A program made the translations under genes and the position numbers. From Bacteroidota bacterium (GTDB lineage: Bacteria > Bacteroidota > Ignavibacteria > UBA10030), in contig JBARRO010000048.1 of assembly GCA_049644265.1 (NCBI GenBank), positions 2,886-66,885 of the forward strand: a stretch of DNA of 64,000 bases, read 5' to 3'. Within the stretch, counting starts at the first letter, position 1; each line of letters begins with the position of its first letter. Under the pieces are notes generated by a model. It was not told where the DNA came from and ran no database searches. It worked only from the letters and a program-made list of their open reading frames with translations. Below, piece after piece: positions 5,449-30,220 of this stretch.

Positions 5449-6942
5449 TTGCCGAATGTTCTTCTGACACACTCGTATTTCCTGAGGTTTGATCCAAAGG
5501 AGTACCGGGCCATGATGCCCTATCCTCCGCTGGGCACCCTCTATGCCGCCTCCTACCTCAGACAGCATGGAATTTCGGTTGCCCTCCACGATGTCATGCT
5601 TGCGGCAACTGAGGAAGAGATTGTGCCCGCAATCGCGGCTGCACAACCGTCCGTCGTGGCAATCTATGACGATGGATTCAACTACCTTTCGAAAATGTGC
5701 CTGACCCGGATGCGGCAGGCCGCATTCTCCATGACACAAATGGCTAAGGAGCGCGGGTGCACCGTGGTCGTCTTCAGCTCTGACGCCACAGACCATCTTG
5801 AGGAGTACTTCCGGCACGGTGCGGATTACGTGATCTGCGGAGAGGCTGAGGTCACCCTCGCCGAGCTGGTTCAATTTCTGACGGGGTCGTCTTCCCAAAC
5901 CCCGGAGATGATCAACGGACTCGCCTTTGTCAGGAAGGGCAACATCATAAAGACTGGACAGCGGAAAGTGCTCCAGGACCTCGATCAGTTGCCTTTCCCG
6001 GCATGGGACCTCGTCGATCTTCATCGTTATCGGTCAGCCTGGAAGAAACATCACGGATATTTTTCACTGAACATGGTGACAACCCGTGGGTGTCCCTTCC
6101 ACTGTAATTGGTGTGCGAAACCTCTGTATGGCCAGGTGTACCACGCGCGAAGCCCTGAGAATGTCGTTGCCGAAATGAAATACCTCAAGGAGTTTGCTCA
6201 GCCCGACCATATCTGGTTTGCGGATGACATTTTTGGACTTAAACCCGGTTGGGTGGAAAAATTCGCTTACCACGTGCAGAATGAGGACGCGAAAATCCCG
6301 TTCAAATGTCTGGCTCGAGTCGACTTGCTCCTTGAGAGGAACACGCTCCAGCAGCTCAGGGAAGCAGGTTGCGAAACAGTTTGGGTTGGTGCAGAATCGG
6401 GGTCCCAGAAAGTCCTCGACGCCATGGAAAAGGGAACCACGGTGGAACAGATTTACAGAGCCACATCCCTCCTTCGCCGAAACGGCATAAGGACCGGTTT
6501 TTTTCTCCAGTTTGGTTATCCAGGAGAAGATCGGGACGACATTCTGAAGACCATTGGAATGGTCAAGGATTGCATGCCGGACGAGATAGGAATTTCTGTT
6601 TCCTATCCCCTCCCGGGAACAAAGTTCTACGAACGCGTAAAGAATCAGCTGGCAGGAAAACAAAATTGGGCCGTGAGCCAGGATCTTGATCTCATGTTCG
6701 CCGGAGAGTTCTCACCCGATTTCTATCGAATGCTGCACCGGGTAGTTCACAAACAGTTCAAAATATGGCGCGGCCTCAGAGCCCTTAAAGCATTGTTTGT
6801 GCACCCCGGAGATCGTGTGAGGAACAAGATCCGATCCATCGCTTCCATGGTCTATTACGGTCTAACATTGCCCATCGATCGTATTCGCCTTCTTGCATTG
6901 GAAAAGGCGCCTCATGCCAGGATCAACGGCTATGCAGACTGA
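5449..6942 (+). CDS. Cobalamin-binding-domain radical SAM protein (class B)
   Basis: 497 aa. N-terminal Rossmann-like B12-binding region followed by a CPFHCNWC radical-SAM cysteine triad (CxxxCxxC). Confidence 0.75.
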   Translation: MPNVLLTHSYFLRFDPKEYRAMMPYPPLGTLYAASYLRQHGISVALHDVMLAATEEEIVPAIAAAQPSVVAIYDDGFNYLSKMCLTRMRQAAFSMTQMAKERGCTVVVFSSDATDHLEEYFRHGADYVICGEAEVTLAELVQFLTGSSSQTPEMINGLAFVRKGNIIKTGQRKVLQDLDQLPFPAWDLVDLHRYRSAWKKHHGYFSLNMVTTRGCPFHCNWCAKPLYGQVYHARSPENVVAEMKYLKEFAQPDHIWFADDIFGLKPGWVEKFAYHVQNEDAKIPFKCLARVDLLLERNTLQQLREAGCETVWVGAESGSQKVLDAMEKGTTVEQIYRATSLLRRNGIRTGFFLQFGYPGEDRDDILKTIGMVKDCMPDEIGISVSYPLPGTKFYERVKNQLAGKQNWAVSQDLDLMFAGEFSPDFYRMLHRVVHKQFKIWRGLRALKALFVHPGDRVRNKIRSIASMVYYGLTLPIDRIRLLALEKAPHARINGYAD

Positions 6943-15171: not shown

Positions 15172-15747
15172 ATGGATACTTCTGAGTTGCACAACATACC
15201 AAGAAATACCGGTTGGATCGAAGTCGTTTGCGGATGCATGTTCAGCGGAAAGACCGAGGAGCTCATTCGAAGATTGCGAAGAGCACAGATCGCCAGGCAG
15301 AAGGTGGCAGTCTTCAAACCTCGAATCGACAAACGTTACAGTGCGGAGCACATTGTTTCCCATAGCGAACAATCGCTCGTCTCAACGGTCGTAGATGACG
15401 CCTCGGATATTCTTAAGCAGGCGGGAGATGCCCAGGTTATTGGGGTTGACGAGGGTCAGTTCTTTAAGGCTAATCTTGTCGAAGTGTGTGAAGCGTTAGC
15501 CAACAACGGAAAACGGGTTATTGTGGCCGGTCTGGATCAGGATTATCGTGGAAAACCATTTGAACCGATGCCCCAACTCCTTTCAATAGCGGAGTATATC
15601 ACCAAAACCCTCGCGATCTGTGTCGTCTGCGGAAATCCCGCAGACCGCACCCAAAGGACCTCGGCATCGAGTGAGAGAGTTGTGGTTGGGGCCAAAGAGA
15701 TGTACGAGGCTCGATGCAGGCGGTGTCACCAACCTCCAAAGGAATAG
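15172..15747 (+). CDS. tdk: Thymidine kinase
   Basis: P-loop [11 protein letters not shown] and C-terminal zinc ribbon CxxC...CRRC, typical of type II TK. Confidence 0.9.
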
Positions 15748-17393: not shown

Positions 17394-18317
17394 CTAGATC
17401 CGATCCGCCAGCATCAGGATCATCAGTGCCGGAAGATAAGCTAGTGACGCGAAAAACACCAGACGGGAAGTGGCATTCACGACGACAGGGTTGTCCTGCC
17501 TTGACGCTCTTGAAAGCAAAAAGGAGTACCAGGCAAAGCCGCCACTCACCAGGATCGCCCCGACGAAGTAGGTCATACCAGTGAGACCGGCCACTGTAAA
17601 GCCAACACTCAGTGGAATCAGAATTGCGCAGGAAACCAAAATGTGAAGACTCGTTCTTGAGGCCCGATCGGTATCAATCACCGTGAGCATTTTGTATCCT
17701 GCACGAGCGTAATCCTTCCGATACATCCATGCAAGCGATAAGAAATGCGGAATCTGCCAGGCGAACAGAAGTCCGAAGAAAATCCAACCTCCCAAGGTGA
17801 TCCTGTTGCTCGCTGCGGCGCACCCGATCAGCGTTGGCAACGCACCGGGGACAGCTCCCACGATTGTATTGAGCCAGGTGAGTCGCTTGAGCGGTGTGTA
17901 CACAAACAAGTAGAGGAGCAGGGTTGATTCTGCGATAATTGCCGCGAGCGGATTTGCAAACACCCAAAGTATTACAAACCCCGCTGTTGAAACAAGCCAG
18001 CCAAACACGAACACCTCCGGGGCACGAAGTCGCCCTGCAGGAAGCGGTCTTCGCTCTGTCCGTTTCATTTTCGCATCGTGGAAACGCTCGATATGCTGGT
18101 TCAGCGCTCCAGCCCCTCCCCCGACGAAGAGGGTTCCCAGAGCAGTCCAAAGCATGACAATTCCATCAACCGTCGGCCCGGAAGCCAGATAGAACGAGAA
18201 CACCGTGGTGAGAACCGAAAGTCCCGTAAGCTCCGGTTTCATCAGTTCTATGTAGTCCATGAGCCGTACGCCTTGCCGACGGACCGACATTTCGACCATC
18301 TCGAACTGAGGGATCAA
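17394..18317 (-). CDS. ctaB: Protohaem IX farnesyltransferase (haem O synthase)
   Basis: UbiA-superfamily polytopic protein with KRTERRPLPAGR and NxxxDxxxD-like motifs. Confidence 0.85.
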   Translation of the reverse strand: MIPQFEMVEMSVRRQGVRLMDYIELMKPELTGLSVLTTVFSFYLASGPTVDGIVMLWTALGTLFVGGGAGALNQHIERFHDAKMKRTERRPLPAGRLRAPEVFVFGWLVSTAGFVILWVFANPLAAIIAESTLLLYLFVYTPLKRLTWLNTIVGAVPGALPTLIGCAAASNRITLGGWIFFGLLFAWQIPHFLSLAWMYRKDYARAGYKMLTVIDTDRASRTSLHILVSCAILIPLSVGFTVAGLTGMTYFVGAILVSGGFAWYSFLLSRASRQDNPVVVNATSRLVFFASLAYLPALMILMLADRI

Positions 18318-19339
18318 GCAACGGCCTCCTTTCCATTCACCACAAGCTTCTCCGAAATCAATCGAACGGGCGCAATGCGATACAGATGCAGAGCAGACAG
18401 CACAACGGTAACCAGGAGTAACGCTCCCACGGTCTGGTGCGCCGTTGCAATTTCAACGGATGTATGAGTCAGTACCGTCAAAGCCCCGAGAGAGAACTGA
18501 AGAACAACCACCCCGATGAGCGCAAGACTGAGCGACCCGAACCTCCGTGAAATCCCCGATAATTTCCGAAGCTTGAAGGCACTGGCGATAACAAAGATCG
18601 ACGTCACAACTGCCCAGAAACGATGGAGCATATGAATGACGATTTGGCCCCTTTCAATTGCGCCATCCGCGGCGAGACGAAGATCTGAACGGATGAGCTG
18701 TTCGTTGTACTTCGCAAGAGACTCGGAGGATAAGGATGGAACCAGCTGTCCGTACGCGAGTGGAAAGTCCGGAACGGCAAGGCCGGAATCCGTGTGCCGC
18801 ATGACTGAACCGAGAATCAACTGGATATAGACAGCAACAACAGACATCGCCACAATCACCATCGTATTCCGGGGAATGGAGATCGATGCCGGAGAACGAG
18901 TTAGCCACCAACGGGAAGAGAACAGTGCAAGCGAAGCAACGAGGCAGAAGAAGGTTTGGGCAAGCGTTGCGTGACTTGCGGAGACTGCGGGTGGAAGAAG
19001 GAGGTAGACTGTTAATCCGCCCAGGAGGCCCTGCAGGATCACCGCGGCAAGCGATGCCACGGAAATCCATCGAACCCAGCGTCGCTTCTCAACCTTCATG
19101 ATCCAGAATGTCAGGATGACCGTAAGAAATCCAACAAACGATGCGATCATGCGGTGTCCGTGTTCGAAGAAGATACCTCCGACCATCGGGGGCATCACTT
19201 GTCCATACGACAACGGCCAATCCGGCACAGCGAGCCCGGATCCCGTGCTTGTGACCAATCCTCCGGCAACAAGCAAAAGGACGGTACAGAACGAGACAAA
19301 AACTGTATACCAGTGGAGCGCGCGCTTATATTCGTTCAT
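18314..19339 (-). CDS. ctaA: Haem A synthase (CtaA/COX15 family)
   Basis: Eight TM helices with paired His-containing motifs (FFEHGHRMIA ... HTDSGLAVPDFPL). Four-base overlap with ctaB. Confidence 0.7.
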   Translation of the reverse strand: MNEYKRALHWYTVFVSFCTVLLLVAGGLVTSTGSGLAVPDWPLSYGQVMPPMVGGIFFEHGHRMIASFVGFLTVILTFWIMKVEKRRWVRWISVASLAAVILQGLLGGLTVYLLLPPAVSASHATLAQTFFCLVASLALFSSRWWLTRSPASISIPRNTMVIVAMSVVAVYIQLILGSVMRHTDSGLAVPDFPLAYGQLVPSLSSESLAKYNEQLIRSDLRLAADGAIERGQIVIHMLHRFWAVVTSIFVIASAFKLRKLSGISRRFGSLSLALIGVVVLQFSLGALTVLTHTSVEIATAHQTVGALLLVTVVLSALHLYRIAPVRLISEKLVVNGKEAVA

Positions 19340-21709: not shown

Positions 21710-23473
21710 TTAAACCTTTGCGGATTCGTTTTGGGGAAGGTAATCTTTATGGTTCCCAGGCACACTGTATTCGTACGGGCCCCTGTATACTTCCGGAGGC
21801 GTAAGAAAATTCCCGTGCGGAGGAGGTGTCGGAGTAGCCCAGTCGAGCGTTGTTGCTTCCCACGGATTCTCAGAAACTTTTTTGCCTTTCTTGATGCTCC
21901 AGAAGAAATTGAAGATGAAAAACAGCTGGAACAATCCGAGCGTCCAGGCCGCGACCGACATGACCTCGTTCAGATACAGAACGCCCTGAGCGTGTGCATA
22001 CTGCTGACCGCCGTCGTAGAGCCGTCGCGAAACTCCCGCCAGACCCTGGATGAACATCGGCATGAAGATAAAGTTGATCGCCACAAGCGATCCCCAGAAG
22101 TGGATCTTCCCGAGCGTTTCGCTCATCCGCCGACCGGTGACCTTTGGATACCAGAAATACACGCCGGCGAACAGGGCGAAAATTGTACCCGGGGCGACCA
22201 CATAGTGGAAATGGCCGATGACGTAGTATGTGTCATGAAGATGAATATCGGTAGGAGCCAGGCCCAGGGGCAGGCCCGTCAGTCCTCCGATGCCGAACAT
22301 GGGAAGAAAAGCCAGGGCGAAGAGCATCGGCGTGTTGTAGCGGATCGACCCGCCCCACAAGGAAAGAATCAGAGCTGTCAGAATAATAACGGACGGGATG
22401 GAAATGATCATCGTTGTCGTCTGGAAGAACGTGCTGATCGTCGTTCCCATGCCCGTCAGGAACATGTGATGTGCCCAGACGATAAACGACATGAATCCGA
22501 GGAAGATCGTTGCATACACCAGGGATTTGTATCCCCACAACGGCTTTCGCGTGTTGTTGGCGATGATTTCCCCGACAATACCCATGGCGGGAAGGATAAG
22601 CACATAGACTTCCGGATGCGCCAGGAACCAGAAGAGATGCTGCCAGAGGATTGGGCTCCCTCCTCCACTCACCTGCAACGGCTGCCCGGAAACAACGAGG
22701 CCGCTCGGCAGGAAGAAGCTTGTTCCCGCAAGTCGATCCATAAGCTGCAGAATGCCCGCTGCTTCGAGCGGCGGAAATGCAAGAAGAAGAAGGAACGATG
22801 TGACGAGCTGTGCCCACACGAAGAACGGCAAACGCATGAACGACAGGCCCCGGGCGCGGAGCTGAACAATCGTCGTAATGAAATTCACCGACCCGAGAAG
22901 CGATGATGTGATCAGAAAGATCATACCAATGAGCCAGAACGTCTGGCCTTCGGTCGCGATCGTCGCAAGCGGTGCATACGAAGTCCACCCCGAGTTCGCT
23001 GCTCCACCTGGAACAAAAAAGCTCGCAAGCATGATCACGCCGCCCCAGAAGTAGCAGTGATAGCTGGCCATGTTCAGTTTGGGGAACGCCATGTCCGGCG
23101 CCCCAATCTGCAGGGGAACAACGTAGTTCCCGAATGCTCCCACTGCCAGCGGCACGACACCGAGGAACACCATAATTGTCCCGTGCATCGCACCAAGCTG
23201 GTTGTAGAACTCGGGCAGCATGATTCCACCCGGCGCATTCGCCTCGCCCAACCATTGCCCGATGAACGGAATAGGCTGGCCCGGATATGCGAGCTGCCAG
23301 CGCATGATCATCATCAGCGTGAATCCAAAGAGCAGGAACAGGAGCGCGGTGATGCCGTACTGCACTCCGATGACTTTGTGGTCCTGGGAGAACCAATAGG
23401 TACGCCAGAAGCCCTGATGGGCTTCGTGGACATGTCCGTGAACGCTATGCTCAGCGGTCGTTACGTGTTCCAA
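21710..23473 (-). CDS. coxA: Cytochrome c oxidase subunit I (haem-copper oxidase catalytic subunit)
   Basis: 587 aa with canonical GHPEVY, WAHHMF and HFHYV motifs. The + ORF 21731..22906 is an antisense shadow. Confidence 0.95.
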   Translation of the reverse strand: MEHVTTAEHSVHGHVHEAHQGFWRTYWFSQDHKVIGVQYGITALLFLLFGFTLMMIMRWQLAYPGQPIPFIGQWLGEANAPGGIMLPEFYNQLGAMHGTIMVFLGVVPLAVGAFGNYVVPLQIGAPDMAFPKLNMASYHCYFWGGVIMLASFFVPGGAANSGWTSYAPLATIATEGQTFWLIGMIFLITSSLLGSVNFITTIVQLRARGLSFMRLPFFVWAQLVTSFLLLLAFPPLEAAGILQLMDRLAGTSFFLPSGLVVSGQPLQVSGGGSPILWQHLFWFLAHPEVYVLILPAMGIVGEIIANNTRKPLWGYKSLVYATIFLGFMSFIVWAHHMFLTGMGTTISTFFQTTTMIISIPSVIILTALILSLWGGSIRYNTPMLFALAFLPMFGIGGLTGLPLGLAPTDIHLHDTYYVIGHFHYVVAPGTIFALFAGVYFWYPKVTGRRMSETLGKIHFWGSLVAINFIFMPMFIQGLAGVSRRLYDGGQQYAHAQGVLYLNEVMSVAAWTLGLFQLFFIFNFFWSIKKGKKVSENPWEATTLDWATPTPPPHGNFLTPPEVYRGPYEYSVPGNHKDYLPQNESAKV

Positions 23474-23535: not shown

Positions 23536-24228
23536 TTAGCCTTTGAACTTAAAGTCAAGCGTTGCCTTTCCGCTTGCGTCGACCTTCACTTTACCGGTCT
23601 GCACACCGTATTTTTCGTGCCAGGCCTCGACCGTGTACTCACCGGCAGGGAGTCCTTTCAGTGTGAAGGATCCATCATCGCCGGTTACGCCGTAGAACGG
23701 ATGACTGAAGACGCCGATGTACGCGCCCATCCAGCTGTGGACTTCACACTTGACCTTGAAGGTCTCGGGTTTGTCGAATTTCTTGGTCATCTTCATGTTC
23801 TTTATGGGCTGAGCCTGGTTGAACTGCGTGTTGAGCTTGGACAGGCTATGAACGTTGTGGAGCGTTGGGTCGCTGTTCTTGATTTCCAGCTCCTGGTTGA
23901 CCATAATGCCGAGAACATGGGGCTTGTAGACGCAACCCATCTGATCGAACAGAAGTTTGTCAGAAGGTGTCGCGAACGTTTTTCCACCGAGTCCATCCTT
24001 CACATACACCAGAACGTTCTTCAACGTTCCGTTCTTGTTGACAACAACCTCTTCACCGTACACGTCTGTTGCATGAGCTTTCTTGCAGACGGGGTCTGCA
24101 TTCATGAGAATGCGCGAAGCAGCAGGCGCCTTCCCTTCGAATGTTACTTTACCTGACACATCCCCCGCCACAAGTGAAGCGGTCAGGGCAAGTACCAGGA
24201 CCGCGACAGCCAACATGATCTTACGCAT
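23536..24228 (-). CDS. Secreted cupredoxin-like (type-1 copper) protein, putative electron carrier
   Basis: Signal peptide. Candidate copper ligands His (HNVHS) ... C-x2-H-x2-M (KCEVHSWM) spaced as in amicyanin/plastocyanin. Positioned between the cytochrome c gene and the oxidase genes. Confidence 0.4.
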   Translation of the reverse strand: MRKIMLAVAVLVLALTASLVAGDVSGKVTFEGKAPAASRILMNADPVCKKAHATDVYGEEVVVNKNGTLKNVLVYVKDGLGGKTFATPSDKLLFDQMGCVYKPHVLGIMVNQELEIKNSDPTLHNVHSLSKLNTQFNQAQPIKNMKMTKKFDKPETFKVKCEVHSWMGAYIGVFSHPFYGVTGDDGSFTLKGLPAGEYTVEAWHEKYGVQTGKVKVDASGKATLDFKFKG

Positions 24229-24281: not shown

Positions 24282-26936
24282 CTACTTTATGTCTGCGACC
24301 GCCGCGCTTCGACGGCCGAGACTCCAAACATAGTTCTGAAGAGCTTTGATCTGCTCATCCGAGCTTCCTCCATACACCGTCTCGTCAGGTCCTTTCCCTT
24401 CAAAGAAGAATGCGGGCATCCGCGTGCCGGGCTGCAGCTTTTGCGGATCGTTCAGCCATTGAATAATCCACTCGGGCTTCAACCGGGAGCTCGCCATGGC
24501 CAGATTCGGTGCGAGATCTGACGCCGTCTGCTCTCCTCCCAGCTTCACCGGGCCGGAGGGATGACATTTTCCGCACTGGTACGTATCAAAAAGCTTCTTG
24601 CCTGTTCCAACGTATTTGGGATCGGCGACCGTCGCTGCGTAATCCCTGATTTCAAGATCCTGTTTTGACATCCCGAGGAAGTATTTCTGGACTTTTGAGA
24701 CTTCTTCATCGGTCAGACTGAACGTCGGCATGCGTATTTGCAGCCACGGGCGAATCGTTGTCGGGTTCTTCAGGAAATTATGGAGCCAAGGCTCCTGCAC
24801 CTTTGCTCCCTGGCTTTCCGGAAGCAACGGCGGACCTATCGCAGGCTCCTCGTACTTTGCAAGAACGTACCCTCCGCGGTCTTCGAGCTGGTGACATTGC
24901 ATGCAATTGTACCGCATCGTTACGCGGCGTCCGGCTTCAATGTCCTGCTTTCGCTTGTCGTAGACTTGCTGATACTTCGGCAACGGAACATCCTTCGTCA
25001 TACTGATGAGGAAAAGCCTCAGTTCCCGGATTTCTTCGTCGTTGAACGTGAAGATCGGCATCTTCTGGGCAATACGTTCCGTCAGATATTGTCGCGGATT
25101 CCTTAATTTACCGTACACCCATCCTCTCCACGTATGTTGAACCCAGACCGCTCCGGTCGAATCTACCCGAAACTCTTCTGTCCCCACATGGCTGAGCTCC
25201 TTGGTGTCCCCAAAATCCATCTGCTCGGCCTTCTTTCGACCGAACTCCGAAAGCTCGACAGAAACTTTTCCCTCCTTCTCCGTCCCTTTGATGTCGTGAC
25301 AGCCGAAACAACCATATTCACGTATCAGCTTGTCCCCGCGCGCGATCAGGTCGGGATTGCCAAGGTCGAGCGTCTTCTTCTCAAACGTCCGGTCATCCTT
25401 CATGGTAAGAAGGTACGCGACGACGTCTCTTGCCTCCGAGTCGGAAAGCCTCAGACTCGGCATTCGAGTTTCCGGATTGTAATGACGCGGATTCTTGAGC
25501 CAATCAAAGAGCCAATCTCCGGTAACTTTGCTTCCCACGCGAGTCAGTTCCGGTGCGATGTCGTACGTTGTTCCACGGGAGTCGCGAACCGTCATGAAAT
25601 TCCCGGCGACATGGCATGCCTGGCATCCGACCGATTCAAAGATTCTTTTCCCCTGGGCCGCACTCCCGCCGACAAATGATCCGCGGGGTCTCGCAAATTC
25701 AAAGTTGGATGACTTGGAGAGATTCACGAGAAATGCCGTGACGGCCTCGGCCTGGTCGTCCGTGAATTTGAAATTCGGCATTCGCGTATGCGGATTGTAC
25801 TCTTTCGGATTCCGAACCCACCGGAAGATCCACTCCGGTTTCGCCTTGGCAGTCACGGAATTCAGCGGCGGGCCGATTTTCGCGAGGTCGGAATATCCTT
25901 TGATTTCATGACAGCCGTAGCAGCCTGAATCGATGATGAGTTGCTTGGCACGCGTGAACGGTTGAGCATACTTGAGGACAGATTCGTTATAATGACACGA
26001 ATTGCAGGTAGCGTAGACGTCGTTTCCTCTGAGAATCGGCGTCTCCCAGTAATGGTCCTCGTCGCCGTGAGCAAACCCAGTCGTGAGCGCAGGACCCTGA
26101 CCACGATGGCAGGGAGTGCAGCCGAATGTTTCCGGATTGTGCTTTGCCAGAAGTTCCGGCATCGGATGTTTGCGATAGGGCTCCGGTGCATCCGCCATAA
26201 CATCGTCCGCCCATCCGGCATGACAGGTCTGGCAGCGATCCACCCGGGCCTTGATTTCCTGAAACGGAGTCAACTCAAAATCATTCAGCACAAGCTGTCG
26301 TACAGCGATCGGCGCCGCTTTTGCCTTCTCGATCTTTGAGGCAAACCCGTTGGCCTTTGCGTACATAGCTTTCAGGTCCGCCTGGGCTTTCATAACTGCA
26401 TCTTTATACTTGTTGACGACGATGTCGAGCGTCGCAACCTTGCTTTCGAGGTCGGTCTTCTCGCCGAAATGCCTGGCGATGGCGGCATCGTGCTTGTCCA
26501 ATTCGACTTTCTCGCTCAACCCAGACTTCCCTTCCGAGAGGGCTTTCTTATACTGGAAATACGCCGCGTCAGATCGGCTTCGCGCAAACCTCCATTCGCG
26601 CGTCGCAATATCGAGGTCTTCCTGCAGTTTCTCCTTCGCCTTTACCGTCTTCATGTACTCGTCAGACTCCAGCCCCTTGTTTGCCTCCGCCAGCGCCTGA
26701 TTCAATTGCGCTGCCTGGGATGAATCGATTTCCTGCAACGCCGCCTGGCGCAGGGAGTCTGTTTTCTGAGCATACAGCTCGTAGTAGCGGGCCTGATATT
26801 CCTTCCACGGCCGTCGCACCTTCACTTCATCCCACACCGCCCATACCGTCCCGAGGAACAGCAATCCACTGAACGCAACGTAGAACAGCTCGTAGTTGCG
26901 GGATTCGACAGGTGTTTGTGATCGCTTATCGAACAT
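24282..26936 (-). CDS. Membrane-anchored octahaem c-type cytochrome with long N-terminal coiled coil
   Basis: 884 aa. One N-terminal TM helix, ~200 aa of heptad-rich Ala/Lys/Glu coiled coil, then eight CxxCH motifs (CQTCH, CTPCH, CNSCH, CYGCH, CQACH, CFGCH, CMQCH, CGKCH). Confidence 0.85.
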   Translation of the reverse strand: MFDKRSQTPVESRNYELFYVAFSGLLFLGTVWAVWDEVKVRRPWKEYQARYYELYAQKTDSLRQAALQEIDSSQAAQLNQALAEANKGLESDEYMKTVKAKEKLQEDLDIATREWRFARSRSDAAYFQYKKALSEGKSGLSEKVELDKHDAAIARHFGEKTDLESKVATLDIVVNKYKDAVMKAQADLKAMYAKANGFASKIEKAKAAPIAVRQLVLNDFELTPFQEIKARVDRCQTCHAGWADDVMADAPEPYRKHPMPELLAKHNPETFGCTPCHRGQGPALTTGFAHGDEDHYWETPILRGNDVYATCNSCHYNESVLKYAQPFTRAKQLIIDSGCYGCHEIKGYSDLAKIGPPLNSVTAKAKPEWIFRWVRNPKEYNPHTRMPNFKFTDDQAEAVTAFLVNLSKSSNFEFARPRGSFVGGSAAQGKRIFESVGCQACHVAGNFMTVRDSRGTTYDIAPELTRVGSKVTGDWLFDWLKNPRHYNPETRMPSLRLSDSEARDVVAYLLTMKDDRTFEKKTLDLGNPDLIARGDKLIREYGCFGCHDIKGTEKEGKVSVELSEFGRKKAEQMDFGDTKELSHVGTEEFRVDSTGAVWVQHTWRGWVYGKLRNPRQYLTERIAQKMPIFTFNDEEIRELRLFLISMTKDVPLPKYQQVYDKRKQDIEAGRRVTMRYNCMQCHQLEDRGGYVLAKYEEPAIGPPLLPESQGAKVQEPWLHNFLKNPTTIRPWLQIRMPTFSLTDEEVSKVQKYFLGMSKQDLEIRDYAATVADPKYVGTGKKLFDTYQCGKCHPSGPVKLGGEQTASDLAPNLAMASSRLKPEWIIQWLNDPQKLQPGTRMPAFFFEGKGPDETVYGGSSDEQIKALQNYVWSLGRRSAAVADIK

Positions 26937-26960
26937 TTATCTGTCCACAAGATTTGAAAG

Positions 26961-27386
26961 ATACCACGAAGGACACCAAGAACACTAAGGGTAAATACGC
27001 AGCCTTCAATGAACGATGTCTCATTCGTGTTATTCGTTGCATTCGAGAAATTCGTGTCTCAGTAAGTGACCTGATCTTCGTGCTCCCCGTGTCCTTCGTG
27101 GTTATACGTTAAACCAGGGGGTAACCCAGATATACTTAACCGGATTCGCACCGAACGTTTTTCAAACATCGAACTGTCCGCTGAGAATTGAAAGTCGTTT
27201 TACCACGAAGGGCACAAAGGACACTAAGTAATATGTGCTCTTGAAATATCTCTTTAGCTCTACTCGTTGCATTCGAGAATTCGTGTTTCAGTAAGTGACC
27301 TGATCTTCGTGCTCTTCGTGTCCTTCGTGGTTATATGTTAAACCAGGGGGTAACCCAGATATACTTAACCGGACTCGCACCGAACG
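26961..27386. repeat. Tandem duplication (~190-bp units, ~90% identical) containing elements bounded by 14-bp inverted repeats
   Basis: Unit 1 26961-27157 and unit 2 27200-27386. Each holds ACCACGAAGGACAC ... GTGTCCTTCGTGGT termini (26963-27102; 27202-27331) and internal ATTCG(T/A)N motifs at exact 9-bp spacing (27023, 27032, 27041, 27050). Unit 1 also duplicates the last ~55 coding bp of the subunit-IV-like cyt b gene. Confidence 0.8.
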
Positions 27387-28233
27387 CAAGCGGAGCCAGC
27401 CGCAAGATAATCTTGATGATCAACCCCACCATGGTGACGAACAAAAACGATACAATTGAATATCTCAGAAACCCGAGTTTTTTCATGAGCTCTGTATTCT
27501 GCTTCTTCAACCAATACAGCGGAATCGTGGAATAATAACCCAGCACCACGACGGCGCCGAAGATGAAAGCTACAGGATTGATTGAGGCATCCGGCATGCG
27601 GGTTGGGATCCCGAACATCTCCGAAAAATCGACGTTCGTCAGGACGGCAACGTAGTGCGGATCCCATCTTTCGCCGGGCAAAAAGAAGTTCCACCCAGGC
27701 CCCCGGAGAAACGTTCCGATGAAGATCAGGAATACCCAGAGGATGAGAAAACCGAACGCAAATGTGGTCACCGCAAACTTGCGTTCCTTAAACGTGTAGT
27801 AGCCGTTCCCTTTCTCGTTGATGTCGATGTACGGGATGGCCATGAGCCCGACAATAATGAGAGAAGGAAGCACTACGCCTGCAATCCACGGATCAAAATA
27901 CACGAGCATTTCCTGAAGTCCGAGAAAATACCAGGGCGCCTTCGACGGATTGGGCGTGAGCGCGCGGTTCGCAGGCTCTTCAAGCGGAGCGTCGAGCGTG
28001 ATGGACCAGATAACCATCACCGCCATCACGGCAATTGTCGCCAGAAACTCCACGCGCACGAGATACGGCCAGACCTGTACCTTGTCATCCTGCTTCGCCT
28101 CATCCGGCAGATCCTGACTGTCATTCTTGCGCGCCTTCTTCCAGGCATGGATGGTGAAGTAGACGACTGAAACCAACAGAAGAACAATCGGGATATTGTC
28201 CGGCTTCGTGATGATTTCGAGGAACTGGCTCAT
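27331..28233 (-). CDS. Cytochrome b C-terminal-domain subunit (subunit-IV/PetD-like, extended)
   Basis: 300 aa with multiple TM helices. PWYFLGLQEML motif corresponding to the conserved PEWY region of cyt b / b6f subunit IV. Confidence 0.7.
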   Translation of the reverse strand: MSQFLEIITKPDNIPIVLLLVSVVYFTIHAWKKARKNDSQDLPDEAKQDDKVQVWPYLVRVEFLATIAVMAVMVIWSITLDAPLEEPANRALTPNPSKAPWYFLGLQEMLVYFDPWIAGVVLPSLIIVGLMAIPYIDINEKGNGYYTFKERKFAVTTFAFGFLILWVFLIFIGTFLRGPGWNFFLPGERWDPHYVAVLTNVDFSEMFGIPTRMPDASINPVAFIFGAVVVLGYYSTIPLYWLKKQNTELMKKLGFLRYSIVSFLFVTMVGLIIKIILRLAPLAFGASPVKYIWVTPWFNI

Positions 28234-28294
28234 AGGGTGCTCTCAAACATGTTTTTGGCAGTGCCGATGACGGGTGTAGAACTGGTGAATTTAG

Positions 28295-28403
28295 CCGCAA
28301 AAGTCGCCAAGGAGTCGCAAAGGGCGCAAAGCAAAAATTAATTCATGACTTTTGTCTTCTCTTTGCGATCTTTGCGTCTACTCTGCGTCCTTTGCGGTTT
28401 GCT
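28295..28403. promoter_or_regulatory. Dyad-symmetric array: 3x CGCAAAG then 3x CTTTGCG (long imperfect hairpin) between the two cyt b genes
   Basis: CGCAAAG at 28297, 28316 and 28325. CTTTGCG at 28361, 28370 and 28390, with mirrored 9/19-20-bp spacings around a centre near 28346. Either a stem-loop in the intercistronic mRNA or a binding array for a dimeric regulator. Confidence 0.4.
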
Positions 28404-28404
28404 T

Positions 28405-29175
28405 CTAAAACGTCTTCTTCCCCGTGTCCGGACCCGAAATACCTCCGTCCTTCCTTACACGCCAAAAATGGACCGCCATAAAGATTGTCGCAATGACCGG
28501 AAGAAAAATACAATGACCGACATAGAATCGAAGCAGCGTCGGAGGGCCGACTTCCGTTCCGCCGAGCAGCACGAACCGCACGTCGTTATCCGGGCGCATA
28601 CCGAGCTGTGCACCAAACGGACCTTCGTGTCCAAGCAGCGGAGTTGCACGCGCCATGTTCGTTCCAACCGTCACCGCCCATATCGACAACTGGTCCCACG
28701 GAAGGAGATATCCGGAAAAACTCAGAAGGAATGTCAACACGAGCAGGAGCACACCGACCACCCAGTTGAACTGGCGGGGTGGTTTGTACGATCCGGTGAG
28801 GAACACGCGGAACATGTGCAGCATAACCGTCAGGACCATCGCGTGCGCAGCCCATCGATGCATGTTGCGAATAAGTGGACCGAACGGGACGTCGTTCATC
28901 AGGTACTTCATGTCCTCATACGCGTACTGAGCAGTCGGCCTGTAGTAGAACATCAGGATGATGCCGGTGATCGTGAGGATAAGAAAGAGAAGAAACGTAA
29001 TACCACCCATTCCCCATGTGTATCCGATGTTCGTTGCATGGCGCGGAACTCTGACAGGATGCAGATGGAGAAAAACGTTGTCGACAATCTGGAGAGCGCG
29101 GTTCCGCTGCGTGTCCTGATAGGAATGCCGGAAGATCGATTTATAGACTTCAGTTTTCTTGAAGGATTCAAGCAT
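28405..29175 (-). CDS. Cytochrome b (b6-like, N-terminal haem-binding subunit)
   Basis: 256 aa, four TM helices with paired His ligands ([12 protein letters not shown]...; HFWRVRK). Confidence 0.85.
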
Positions 29176-29190
29176 CGAATAAATCTCCTC

Positions 29191-29886
29191 TTAACCTGTG
29201 TACGGCAGGAATGCACCCGGCTTGGTCCATTCCCCCTTTTCATACAAGAACTTGACGCTCCGGTCGATTTCAAGCTCACCGTCGTCCGCCAGGCCGATCG
29301 AAGCGCGTTCGAGGGGCCGCGGCGCAGGGCCTTCGAAATTCATTCCGGTCTTGTAAAATCCGCTTCCATGGCAGGGACACTTGAATTTGATATCAGAGGG
29401 AAGCCAGCGGGGTGTACAGCCAAGGTGTGTGCAAATGGAGATGAGGGCGTAGAAACCCTCTTTCTCGCGGATGATCCAGACCCGTTTTTCATCCTTAAAT
29501 TTTTCGCTGACCTCGCCGACCACAAAATCCTGGGGAAATCCTGCCTTGAACTTCGTGGAGGGTTCAAACAGAACGCGGGGAAACATGAAGCGCAGTGCGC
29601 CGACCGTGGAGGTGACAATGAATCCGAGAAAGCCGAGCCATCCGACAACGGAAAGCAGGTTCCGCCGACTCATGCGCCAGATGCCGGGGTCTTTTTCCGG
29701 AGCGCGATCCTGCTTGGCTTTTCGTACGGGGGAAGTTGTCAGCTGGGGAGCCGGTTTCGGCGGAGGTGCAGCCGCAGGCTGGTTGGCTGACGCGATATCG
29801 GGAACTTGATCTGACATTGACATTCCTTCGTGCTTTAAAGAGTGTCGAATTCGATGAGCGGCGCCATTCACGAACGGCGTCCGCAA
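29191..29886 (-). CDS. Rieske [2Fe-2S] iron-sulfur protein
   Basis: CTHLGC ... CPCHGS cluster-binding boxes and one TM anchor. Likely true start at an internal Met (MSMSDQV). Confidence 0.9.
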   Translation of the reverse strand: MRTPFVNGAAHRIRHSLKHEGMSMSDQVPDIASANQPAAAPPPKPAPQLTTSPVRKAKQDRAPEKDPGIWRMSRRNLLSVVGWLGFLGFIVTSTVGALRFMFPRVLFEPSTKFKAGFPQDFVVGEVSEKFKDEKRVWIIREKEGFYALISICTHLGCTPRWLPSDIKFKCPCHGSGFYKTGMNFEGPAPRPLERASIGLADDGELEIDRSVKFLYEKGEWTKPGAFLPYTG

Positions 29887-29893
29887 TCAACCG

Positions 29894-30220
29894 TCAGGCT
29901 GCGGCAGCAACCTCATCTTCCCTCTTCACCATGTCGATGGTTTCCCACGGACAGTACTTCGCGCACAGCTTGCAGCCAATGCAGATCTCTTCGTCAACAA
30001 CAACGATTCCGTTCACACTGACGTAACCATGCTCCTCAGGATTCTCAGGCCCGGGAATCTTGTACAAACAATCCACGGGACAGAATTCAATGCACACTTC
30101 GCAACCGGTGCATCCTTCGGGATGGACAATGGCCACGAGAGGAGATTTTTTTTTCTTTTTTGGCGCGGGAGGAGACGCGGGCTTGATGCTTGGTAAAGAT
30201 GCTATCGGGGTATCACTCAT
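29894..30220 (-). CDS. 2[4Fe-4S] dicluster ferredoxin heading the bc-type operon
   Basis: Two CxxCxxCxxxCP motifs (CTGCEVCIEFCP, CIGCKLCAKYCP). N-terminal Pro/Lys-rich tail encoded across an A6GA9 tract. Confidence 0.8.
   Translation of the reverse strand: MSDTPIASLPSIKPASPPAPKKKKKSPLVAIVHPEGCTGCEVCIEFCPVDCLYKIPGPENPEEHGYVSVNGIVVVDEEICIGCKLCAKYCPWETIDMVKREDEVAAAA

Follow-up and report, generated by a model that had tools for sequence, protein, structure and literature searches.

Palindromic repeats in the intergenic regions of bacteria are known in several forms, among them repetitive extragenic palindromes (REPs) and their hairpin-forming doublets (REPINs), the miniature inverted-repeat transposable elements (MITEs) and the intervening sequences of 23S rRNA. 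Here we describe a palindrome built from inward-facing arrays of a heptamer, which was found in a stretch of 64,000 nt from a Bacteroidota bacterium (GTDB lineage Ignavibacteria, UBA10030; GenBank assembly GCA_049644265.1, contig JBARRO010000048.1, positions 2,886 to 66,885). This whole stretch is called the window, and all coordinates are those of the window. Two tandem copies of the palindrome lie in the gap between a subunit-IV-like cytochrome b gene and an octahaem cytochrome c gene. We consider it probable that the feature is a gene-less derivative, about 135 bp long and similar to REPINs and MITEs, of a cassette with a GxxExxY nuclease gene, which was inserted in an operon spacer and then duplicated.

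With REPs, REPINs and the genes of the REP-associated tyrosine transposases (RAYTs), the system described here shares short palindromic repeats, tens to hundreds of which are scattered over intergenic spacers, a single- or few-copy enzyme gene between inverted copies of the repeat, the lack of a target-site duplication and the coexistence of several sub-families in one genome. REP super-families span phyla (PMC3733652). The likeness to bacterial MITEs such as Correia, ERIC/IRU and RUP lies in the size of 100-200 bp, the terminal inverted repeats of ~25 nt and the location in operon spacers, where the elements are co-transcribed and form long hairpins. Inverted repeats around a small open reading frame (ORF) are also a property of the 23S rRNA intervening sequences (S23p, PF05635), which form a stem-loop of ~28 bp and whose ORF needs transcription by the host, is sporadic in its occurrence and is considered selfish (PMC4990558). 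Further, palindromes between cistrons, such as REPs and bacterial interspersed mosaic elements (BIMEs), can alter the relative stability of the upstream and downstream mRNA, and a parallel effect is conceivable here. The GxxExxY family (PF13366) is listed as function unknown (PMC3424549). In the openly accessible literature it is mentioned only in passing, with nothing relevant to this system, and no mention of the arm sequences or their variants was found there; the heptamer-array repeat family is apparently undescribed.

Two tandem palindromes fill the spacer

The 394-bp gap (26937-27330) is filled by two tandem units, which are 89% identical over 247 columns of a pairwise alignment. A first-pass annotation, made from the sequence alone, had described two ~90% identical units here, and its coordinates for the gap, the direct repeat and the motifs all held when recomputed. 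The palindrome of the proximal unit A comprises 130 bp (27202-27331), with arms at 27305-27331 and 27202-27228, each consisting of three 9-nt CACNAAGNN units; that of the distal unit B comprises 140 bp (26963-27102), with arms at 27076-27102 and 26963-26989. The arms are separated by 76 and 86 nt in the two units, and within each unit they are 81% complementary, so that terminal inverted repeats, as in a MITE, are present. The perfect inverted repeat of 14 bp that had been noted at the ends is indeed perfect in unit B (26963-26976/27089-27102), but has one mismatch in unit A (27202-27215 versus 27318-27331), and the full repeat is 27 nt per arm, made of three 9-nt units of CACGAAGNN (period of 9 according to a tandem-repeat finder). 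The 5' arm has the sense-strand sequence ACCACGAAGG-ACACGAAGA-GCACGAAG, and the 3' arm is its imperfect complement. The sequence ACCACGAAGGACAC has four matches in the window with at most one mismatch, while 0.52 are expected.

The loop of unit B contains, as read from the sequence, four ATTCG motifs with a spacing of 9 nt (27023, 27032, 27041 and 27050; together 27023-27058); these were already listed, like the two CTTCGTG motifs, which lie at 27076 and 27094. The phased ATTCG motifs represent the arm unit in decayed form (CACGAAT on the minus strand). The palindrome ends ATAA-CCACG...CGTGG-TAAA in unit A and ...CGTGG-TATC in unit B fit partially to the family consensus TTMA-CC...GG-TKAA, and within the window TAA is present on both sides in unit A only. 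Both strands of each unit fold well below shuffled sequence (z about -5.5 to -5.7). The predicted folding energy of unit A is -43 kcal/mol on either strand, that of unit B -55.2 kcal/mol on the minus strand and -44.9 kcal/mol on the plus strand, and that of the entire gap -122 kcal/mol for the sense and -109.7 kcal/mol for the antisense strand.

The arrangement arose by tandem duplication of the gene end plus the element, as had been proposed and as the alignment bears out. A direct repeat of 109 nt with 95% identity links 27049-27157 to 27278-27386. The unit first described is present, but the repeated unit is longer: on the minus strand it contains the last 54 nt (18 codons) of the subunit-IV-like gene, the palindrome of 130-140 bp, a spacer of 26-32 nt and the cytochrome ATG followed by 11 nt. 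Accordingly, the pseudo-start at 27169-27156, ATGTTTGAAAAACG, has its counterpart in ATGTTCGATAAGCG at 26936-26923, the real start of the cytochrome gene, and the duplication junction is located at 27157/27158. The resulting order is gene end, element A, spacer, pseudo-start, pseudo-gene-end, element B, spacer and real start, which leaves both flanking genes intact. In the alignment, the first spacer copy (27170-27201) and the duplicated cytochrome start (ATG at 27169-27167 plus 9 nt) form the segment 27158-27201 on the minus strand, which ends at the junction; it is followed by 27105-27157 (minus strand), where the last ~18 codons of the subunit-IV-like gene recur as a non-functional copy, for which both the direct repeat and the alignment speak. 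The 26-nt spacer directly before the cytochrome start (26937-26962, minus strand) corresponds to the 21-28-nt spacer of relatives. Since the two copies differ by 11%, the duplication is not an assembly artefact. Six-frame translation revealed a chimeric ORF of 36 codons (27059-27169, minus strand; MFEKRSVRIRLSISGLPPGLTYNHEGHGEHEDQVTY followed by stop), in which the copied ribosome-binding region and the first five codons of the cytochrome gene, out of frame, are joined to the duplicated end of the subunit-IV-like gene and the 5' arm, and which ends with ...NHEGHGEHEDQVTY and a stop. It is probably meaningless.

The palindrome is an insertion relative to orthologous operons

Eight orthologous loci with ~80% protein identity show the same gene order with 21-28 nt between the two genes (28 nt in L001-L004, 21 nt in L283/L284 and 24 nt in L285/L286). 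The closest listed relatives are mostly labelled as Ignavibacteriales or Bacteroidota metagenome-assembled genomes (MAGs). The end of the subunit-IV-like protein, ...VTPWFNI followed by stop, is identical in the orthologues. The palindrome is absent from all eight loci, and no heptamer arrays were found in their operons. Because the first base of the palindrome is the last one of the stop codon and a spacer of 26-32 nt comes after it, the original spacer was split directly after the stop. Thus, the palindrome is a lineage-specific insertion right after the stop codon, which was later duplicated.

In a relative with 94% identity (P0241, ENA ERZ27297709), for which gene coordinates only were compared, the gap is 91 nt long versus 394 nt in the window, and the gap between the preceding two genes is 86 nt versus 171 nt. 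These lengths point to elements that are shorter or older at the two sites of this relative. Together with the short gaps in the distant relatives, the 91 nt imply that the two-unit arrangement is specific to the genome studied here.

The 171-nt gap, which is located between the cytochrome b6-like and the subunit-IV-like genes and is 15-36 nt long in relatives, harbours a second hairpin of 102 nt (28297-28398). A regex scan and inspection of the sequence revealed four CGCAAAG/CGCAGAG units per arm with a spacing of 9-11 nt, and the hairpin folds with -43 kcal/mol (z -5.2). Two consecutive spacers of one operon are thus colonised by two subtypes of the same heptamer-array family.

Heptamer arrays of the same type are found in many phyla

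We defined the family by arms with at least two (2-6) direct units C[AG]CN[AG]AG in a period of 9-11 nt, and by two such arrays facing inwards within a few hundred nt. The window element is of the CACGAAG type, and both of its copies have the unit arrays as well as the inverted orientation. A scan with CCACGAAGGNCACNNNGNNCACNAAG, using one genome per species, found at least 120 stretches with the same arm, while about 4 are expected by chance (1.2e12 positions / 4^19, our own arithmetic), and IMG/VR viral contigs contained 76 matching stretches, in many cases with several on one contig and frequently as solitary arms. These relatives of the element in other genomes had been missed in the first-pass annotation. 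The phyla and classes among the matches listed include Planctomycetota, Verrucomicrobiota, Acidobacteriota, Chloroflexota, Desulfobacterota, Binatia, Methylomirabilota, Gemmatimonadota, Alpha- and Gammaproteobacteria and others; isolates of Herpetosiphon, for example the complete genome of Herpetosiphon aurantiacus DSM 785, are among the Chloroflexota matches.

Among the matches listed, 77 are clear hairpins with a total length of 51-340 nt and arms built as unit arrays like those in the window. Their consensus is TTMA-CCACGAAGG-NCACGAAG-NNCACGAAG, loop, CTTCGTGNN-CTTCGTGN-CCTTCGTGG-TKAA, followed by A-rich sequence. Most loops are unrelated, although certain ones recur within sub-families, such as TTCGGA...TCCGAA in Binatia and Deltaproteobacteria. 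Complementarity between the 2-nt spacers of the two arms was seen in 13 of 39 and 8 of 39 hairpins, as compared to 9.5 +/- 2.1 and 6.2 +/- 2.1 after shuffling, which is a marginal difference. Since it is the heptamers and not a perfect stem that are conserved on both arms, the data point to sequence recognition rather than to selection for base-pairing alone.

Clustering of the ORFs of 120 loci revealed no neighbouring gene common to more than eight of them, and Rfam searches of 17 related loci resulted in a tRNA match only. BLAST comparison of the element with plasmids and of the consensus arm with cultured phages gave no match, to which the low-complexity filter may contribute.

Many solitary CACGAAG arrays were seen in viral contigs of IMG/VR (L148, L160, L139, L164 and L171), on one strand per contig and ending 10-30 nt before a start codon. 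A role of solitary arms as promoter or leader of phage genes was considered and dropped: an ORF start was located within 60 nt in 37 of 89 cases versus 34% of random positions, and the control was poor.

Inverted heptamer arrays bracket GxxExxY genes

The loops of four Planctomycetaceae loci code for a GxxExxY protein or for remnants of it (TIGR04256, E = 5e-8), with the start codon directly after the 5' arm, as is seen in L043. In a Schlesneria MAG (L051, 1696-1860) the loop between the arms retains ~19 codons of the GxxExxY N-terminus and ~10 codons of the C-terminus (LKNGIQRF). This locus is a direct intermediate between the ORF-bearing and the ORF-less forms and has the deletion pattern expected of a non-autonomous derivative. 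Plasmid records contain the gene in comparable surroundings. In Bernardetia (L201) the GxxExxY ORF lies between CACAGAG and CTCTGTG arrays, in Gemmatirosa (L202) a frameshifted GxxExxY ORF is followed by a CGCAGAGGN hairpin, and in Bacteroides finegoldii (L290) the order ttcaCCACAGAGGACGCAGAGGACACGGAGG - ORF - CTCTGTGACCTCTGTGTCCTCTGTGGtgaa is found, with the ORF in sense orientation, inside the conserved pair of radA and the next gene. Bernardetia and B. finegoldii are textbook cases.

For a quantitative comparison, 80 metagenomic GxxExxY loci were fetched, of which 72 had enough flanking sequence to be counted. Inward-facing arrays were present on both sides of the gene in 35/72, on one side in 25/72 and on neither side in 12/72 loci; at least one array was thus found in 60/72 loci, versus 8/718 control windows (1%). 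In several of the loci with one or no array, the ORF is instead flanked on either side by complete short hairpins. The two arms agree in their commonest heptamer in 28 of the 35 loci, as compared to 12 after shuffling. CACAGAG, CGCAGAG, CACGGAG, CACGAAG, CACAAAG and CGCAAAG types occur across the GxxExxY loci, and proteins belonging to the same heptamer type are more similar to each other (65.3% versus 60.0% identity), a difference reached in 0 of 1000 permutations. In 34 loci both neighbours have the same orientation as the ORF, and in 2 loci both have the opposite one. In Sphingomonas parapaucimobilis (L287), for example, the GxxExxY gene is located in sense orientation between fabD and fabG, a conserved gene pair, while S. 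paeninsulae has fabD-fabG without an insert.

The GxxExxY protein (PF13366/TIGR04256) has ~123 aa and consists of a minimal PD-(D/E)XK core. An AlphaFold2 model (predicted local distance difference test score of 92) has its best structural matches in Cas4 SSO0001 and lambda exonuclease; no solved structure was detectable by sequence. The family is very large, with more than 8000 candidates scored in one search. The other ORFs inside arrays were only miscellaneous phage ORFs, and no four-helix-bundle (PF05635) gene was among them, although no search was aimed at PF05635 genes.

Other repeats were observed around two further GxxExxY genes: a single inverted pair of ACACGGATTCG in Treponema saccharophilum (L288), and a 22-nt direct repeat, CAGATTTAATCCGTGTACCTAT, in Fusobacteria bacterium ZRK30 (L289).

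Abundance of the hairpin in Gemmatirosa kalamazoonensis

The isolate Gemmatirosa kalamazoonensis has matches to the 86-nt hairpin beside its GxxExxY pseudogene at no fewer than 40 places on one replicon of 1.1 Mb and at 38 places on a second replicon, where the best match covers 99% of it at 90% identity. GxxExxY-like sequence was detected at three places on the first replicon and at none on the second. One stretch of 50 kb contains six complete hairpins of two heptamer subtypes and further flanking arrays, some of which are concentric. On plasmid 1 (L291), at 5487-5660, 15400-15530 and 18237-18410, a CACAGAG/CACGGAG-type hairpin was observed inside the loop of a CGCAGAG-type hairpin. The linkers are similar in two of the concentric copies, and therefore the composite seems to be a repeated unit itself.

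The respiratory operon

All genes of the operon around the palindromes are encoded on the minus strand and are thus co-directional. In the direction of transcription these are the genes for a ferredoxin (29894-30220), a Rieske protein (29191-29886), a cytochrome b6-like protein (28405-29175), the subunit-IV-like cytochrome b (27331-28233, 300 aa; assigned from the ORF list, PF00032 and the translation), the octahaem cytochrome c (24282-26936, 884 aa with eight CXXCH motifs), which lies downstream of the 394-bp gap, a CarboxypepD_reg protein (23536-24228) and COX1 (21710-23473). The TAA of the subunit-IV-like gene at 27333-27331 abuts the element, and the intergenic gaps in this order are 7, 15, 171, 394, 53 and 62 nt long.

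The gap had first been taken for a promoter region of the octahaem cytochrome gene. This does not agree with its position as an internal spacer of a co-directional operon, which is 21-28 nt long in relatives, and neither a sigma-70-type promoter nor a TAnnTTTG motif of the Bacteroidota type was found in it. There is no terminator-like site in the gap either, and no U-tract follows the stem as it would in an intrinsic terminator. Rfam covariance models gave no match at E <= 10 within 26000-28500. In the 5' part of the octahaem cytochrome gene an 18-nt direct repeat with 94% identity was noticed (26774-26791 and 26885-26902; ACAGCTCGTAGTAGCGGG and ACAGCTCGTAGTTGCGGG).

Possible origin and role of the element

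According to the explanation we favour, the element entered an operon for a bc complex, a cytochrome and an oxidase immediately behind the stop codon of the subunit-IV-like gene, and a tandem duplication of ~230 bp then copied it along with the end of that gene, the spacer and the beginning of the next one. The heptamers may be recognised as sequence, probably by a GxxExxY nuclease acting in trans, and this recognition could spread or maintain the hairpins without target-site duplication. Once transcribed, the element would fold to an interrupted stem of at least 27 bp, which, by analogy to the 23S rRNA intervening sequences, could be cut by RNase III or could block exonucleases, and such a stem might partly uncouple the upstream and downstream cistrons. 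Most likely the presence of the element at this site is selfish or neutral, and it is not a dedicated regulator. Several observations weigh against this explanation. No trace of a GxxExxY ORF was found in the loops of the window by six-frame translation, and neither further CACGAAG-type copies nor a GxxExxY gene are present within the 64 kb. A loop-specific 19-mer had 0 matches in the metagenome collection, and thus no sibling copy with the same loop was detected; among 76 hairpins, no excess of direct flank identity indicative of a target-site duplication was seen at offsets of 0-7 and lengths of 2-8. No pair of filled and empty sites at near-identical sequence was found, and the 91-nt gap of the 94%-identical relative may contain an older, shorter element. 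Since other repeats surround the genes in Treponema and Fusobacteria, the heptamer-array shell is not universal for the GxxExxY family. Further, mobility of the element is suggested by its distribution, and binding or cutting of the arrays by the GxxExxY protein is a prediction.

Alternatively, the palindromes could be a locally selected RNA element, an RNase III site or a barrier to 3'-exonucleases, which sets the levels of the bc-complex cistrons relative to the cytochrome and oxidase cistrons. We regard this as rather unlikely, although a selfish origin followed by exaptation would be compatible with it. Inside a co-directional operon the element must be transcribed; both units fold far better than shuffled sequence, unit B is by 10 kcal/mol more stable on the sense strand due to G-U pairs, and the orientation of the GxxExxY ORFs, with 34 versus 2 loci, is as expected if they rely on host transcripts. 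Moreover, the 23S rRNA intervening sequences with their 28-bp stem are excised by RNase III (PMC4990558). However, the operon works without the element in relatives, as shown by its absence from the eight orthologous loci, and neither a U-tract or terminator-like site nor a match to an Rfam family supports a dedicated RNA structure. When the two strands of the 35 ORF-bearing elements are compared, the arms pair better in the sense strand in 21 and in the antisense strand in 14 cases (p = 0.48), and the spacers between the heptamers are not kept complementary; the lack of a sense-strand bias and the non-complementary spacers argue against selection acting primarily at the RNA level. The element could also be a conventional MITE, a deletion derivative of an insertion sequence (IS) with a DDE transposase, whose terminal repeats carry multiple transposase-binding heptamers. 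Multiple subterminal binding sites are a feature of several transposons, and the terminal inverted repeats, the variable loops, the loop-sharing sub-families and the high copy number would fit. Indeed, of the roles offered at first (an operator array, an RNA stem, a miniature inverted-repeat element) the last one comes closest, but the element is not a textbook MITE: no target-site duplication was detected at any offset or length examined, about 200 loci contain no transposase-sized gene between the arms and no conserved neighbouring gene, and the sole gene consistently bracketed by arrays is that of the 123-aa GxxExxY nuclease. A conventional MITE is therefore improbable. Inverted heptamers every 9 nt, with spacers that do not covary, resemble protein-binding sites as well, and the arrays had been proposed to serve a redox or copper regulator as operator; we regard it as very improbable, however, that a host regulator of the cytochrome and oxidase genes binds them as an operator or iteron-like array. 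Arrays of this kind accompany unrelated genes across many phyla and also in viral contigs, they are absent from the orthologous operons, the gap contains no promoter motif, and the neighbouring spacer carries a different heptamer subtype. The distribution of the arrays largely refutes this proposal.

Comparison with known repetitive elements

On the reading favoured here, the long gaps of the respiratory operon in this genome are parasitic insertions rather than regulatory regions, although they may still affect mRNA processing. At a more general level, it is tempting to speculate that GxxExxY nucleases and inverted heptamer arrays form an undescribed, cross-phylum selfish cassette, a nuclease-based counterpart of RAYT and REP, whose gene-less hairpins have spread to operon spacers of many bacterial phyla and to phages, and of which the window would capture one after its insertion and local duplication; we put this forward tentatively and with less confidence than the origin of the window element itself. 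The bracketing of GxxExxY genes by arrays, together with the excess of gene-less hairpins, makes a role for these proteins testable, namely that of the enzyme in a palindromic-repeat system. The same findings offer an explanation for conserved intergenic hairpins in Planctomycetota, Verrucomicrobiota, Acidobacteriota, Chloroflexota, Bacteroidota, Gemmatimonadota, Proteobacteria and viral contigs, which are covered by no Rfam model and by none of the papers searched.

An rRNA intervening sequence was rejected as an identity of the element, which lies in an mRNA spacer and not in a 23S rRNA helix. More generally, intervening sequences reside in rRNA helices and are excised by RNase III, whereas the heptamer elements are found in mRNA spacers; the ORF belongs to another family, and heptamer-array arms were not described there. 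The heptamer-array element has no homology in sequence or structure to the BIME and REP sequences that stabilise mRNA in enterobacterial operons. Bacterial MITEs differ by their target-site duplication, which was not found among 76 hairpins of the heptamer-array type, and by their DDE-transposase parent, which was not found in about 200 loci.

The differences to REPs concern both the repeat and the enzyme. REPs are palindromes of 20-40 bp with a GTAG or CGTC tag, while the arms described here are arrays of a heptamer, are not palindromes themselves and have no tag; a tagged palindrome with a flanking RAYT gene was not found, nor any neighbouring gene shared among the 120 loci. REP sequences are largely lineage-specific, whereas the heptamer is nearly the same across phyla. 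RAYTs are HUH/Y1 transposases, whereas the protein encoded between the arrays is a PD-(D/E)XK nuclease of ~123 aa. By analogy, the GxxExxY cassette would relate to the gene-less hairpin as RAYT relates to REPIN or an IS to its MITE. Thus, as judged from the openly accessible literature, palindromic repeats with an associated enzyme gene are known in kind, and what is new here is that the repeats are heptamer arrays and the enzyme is a nuclease.

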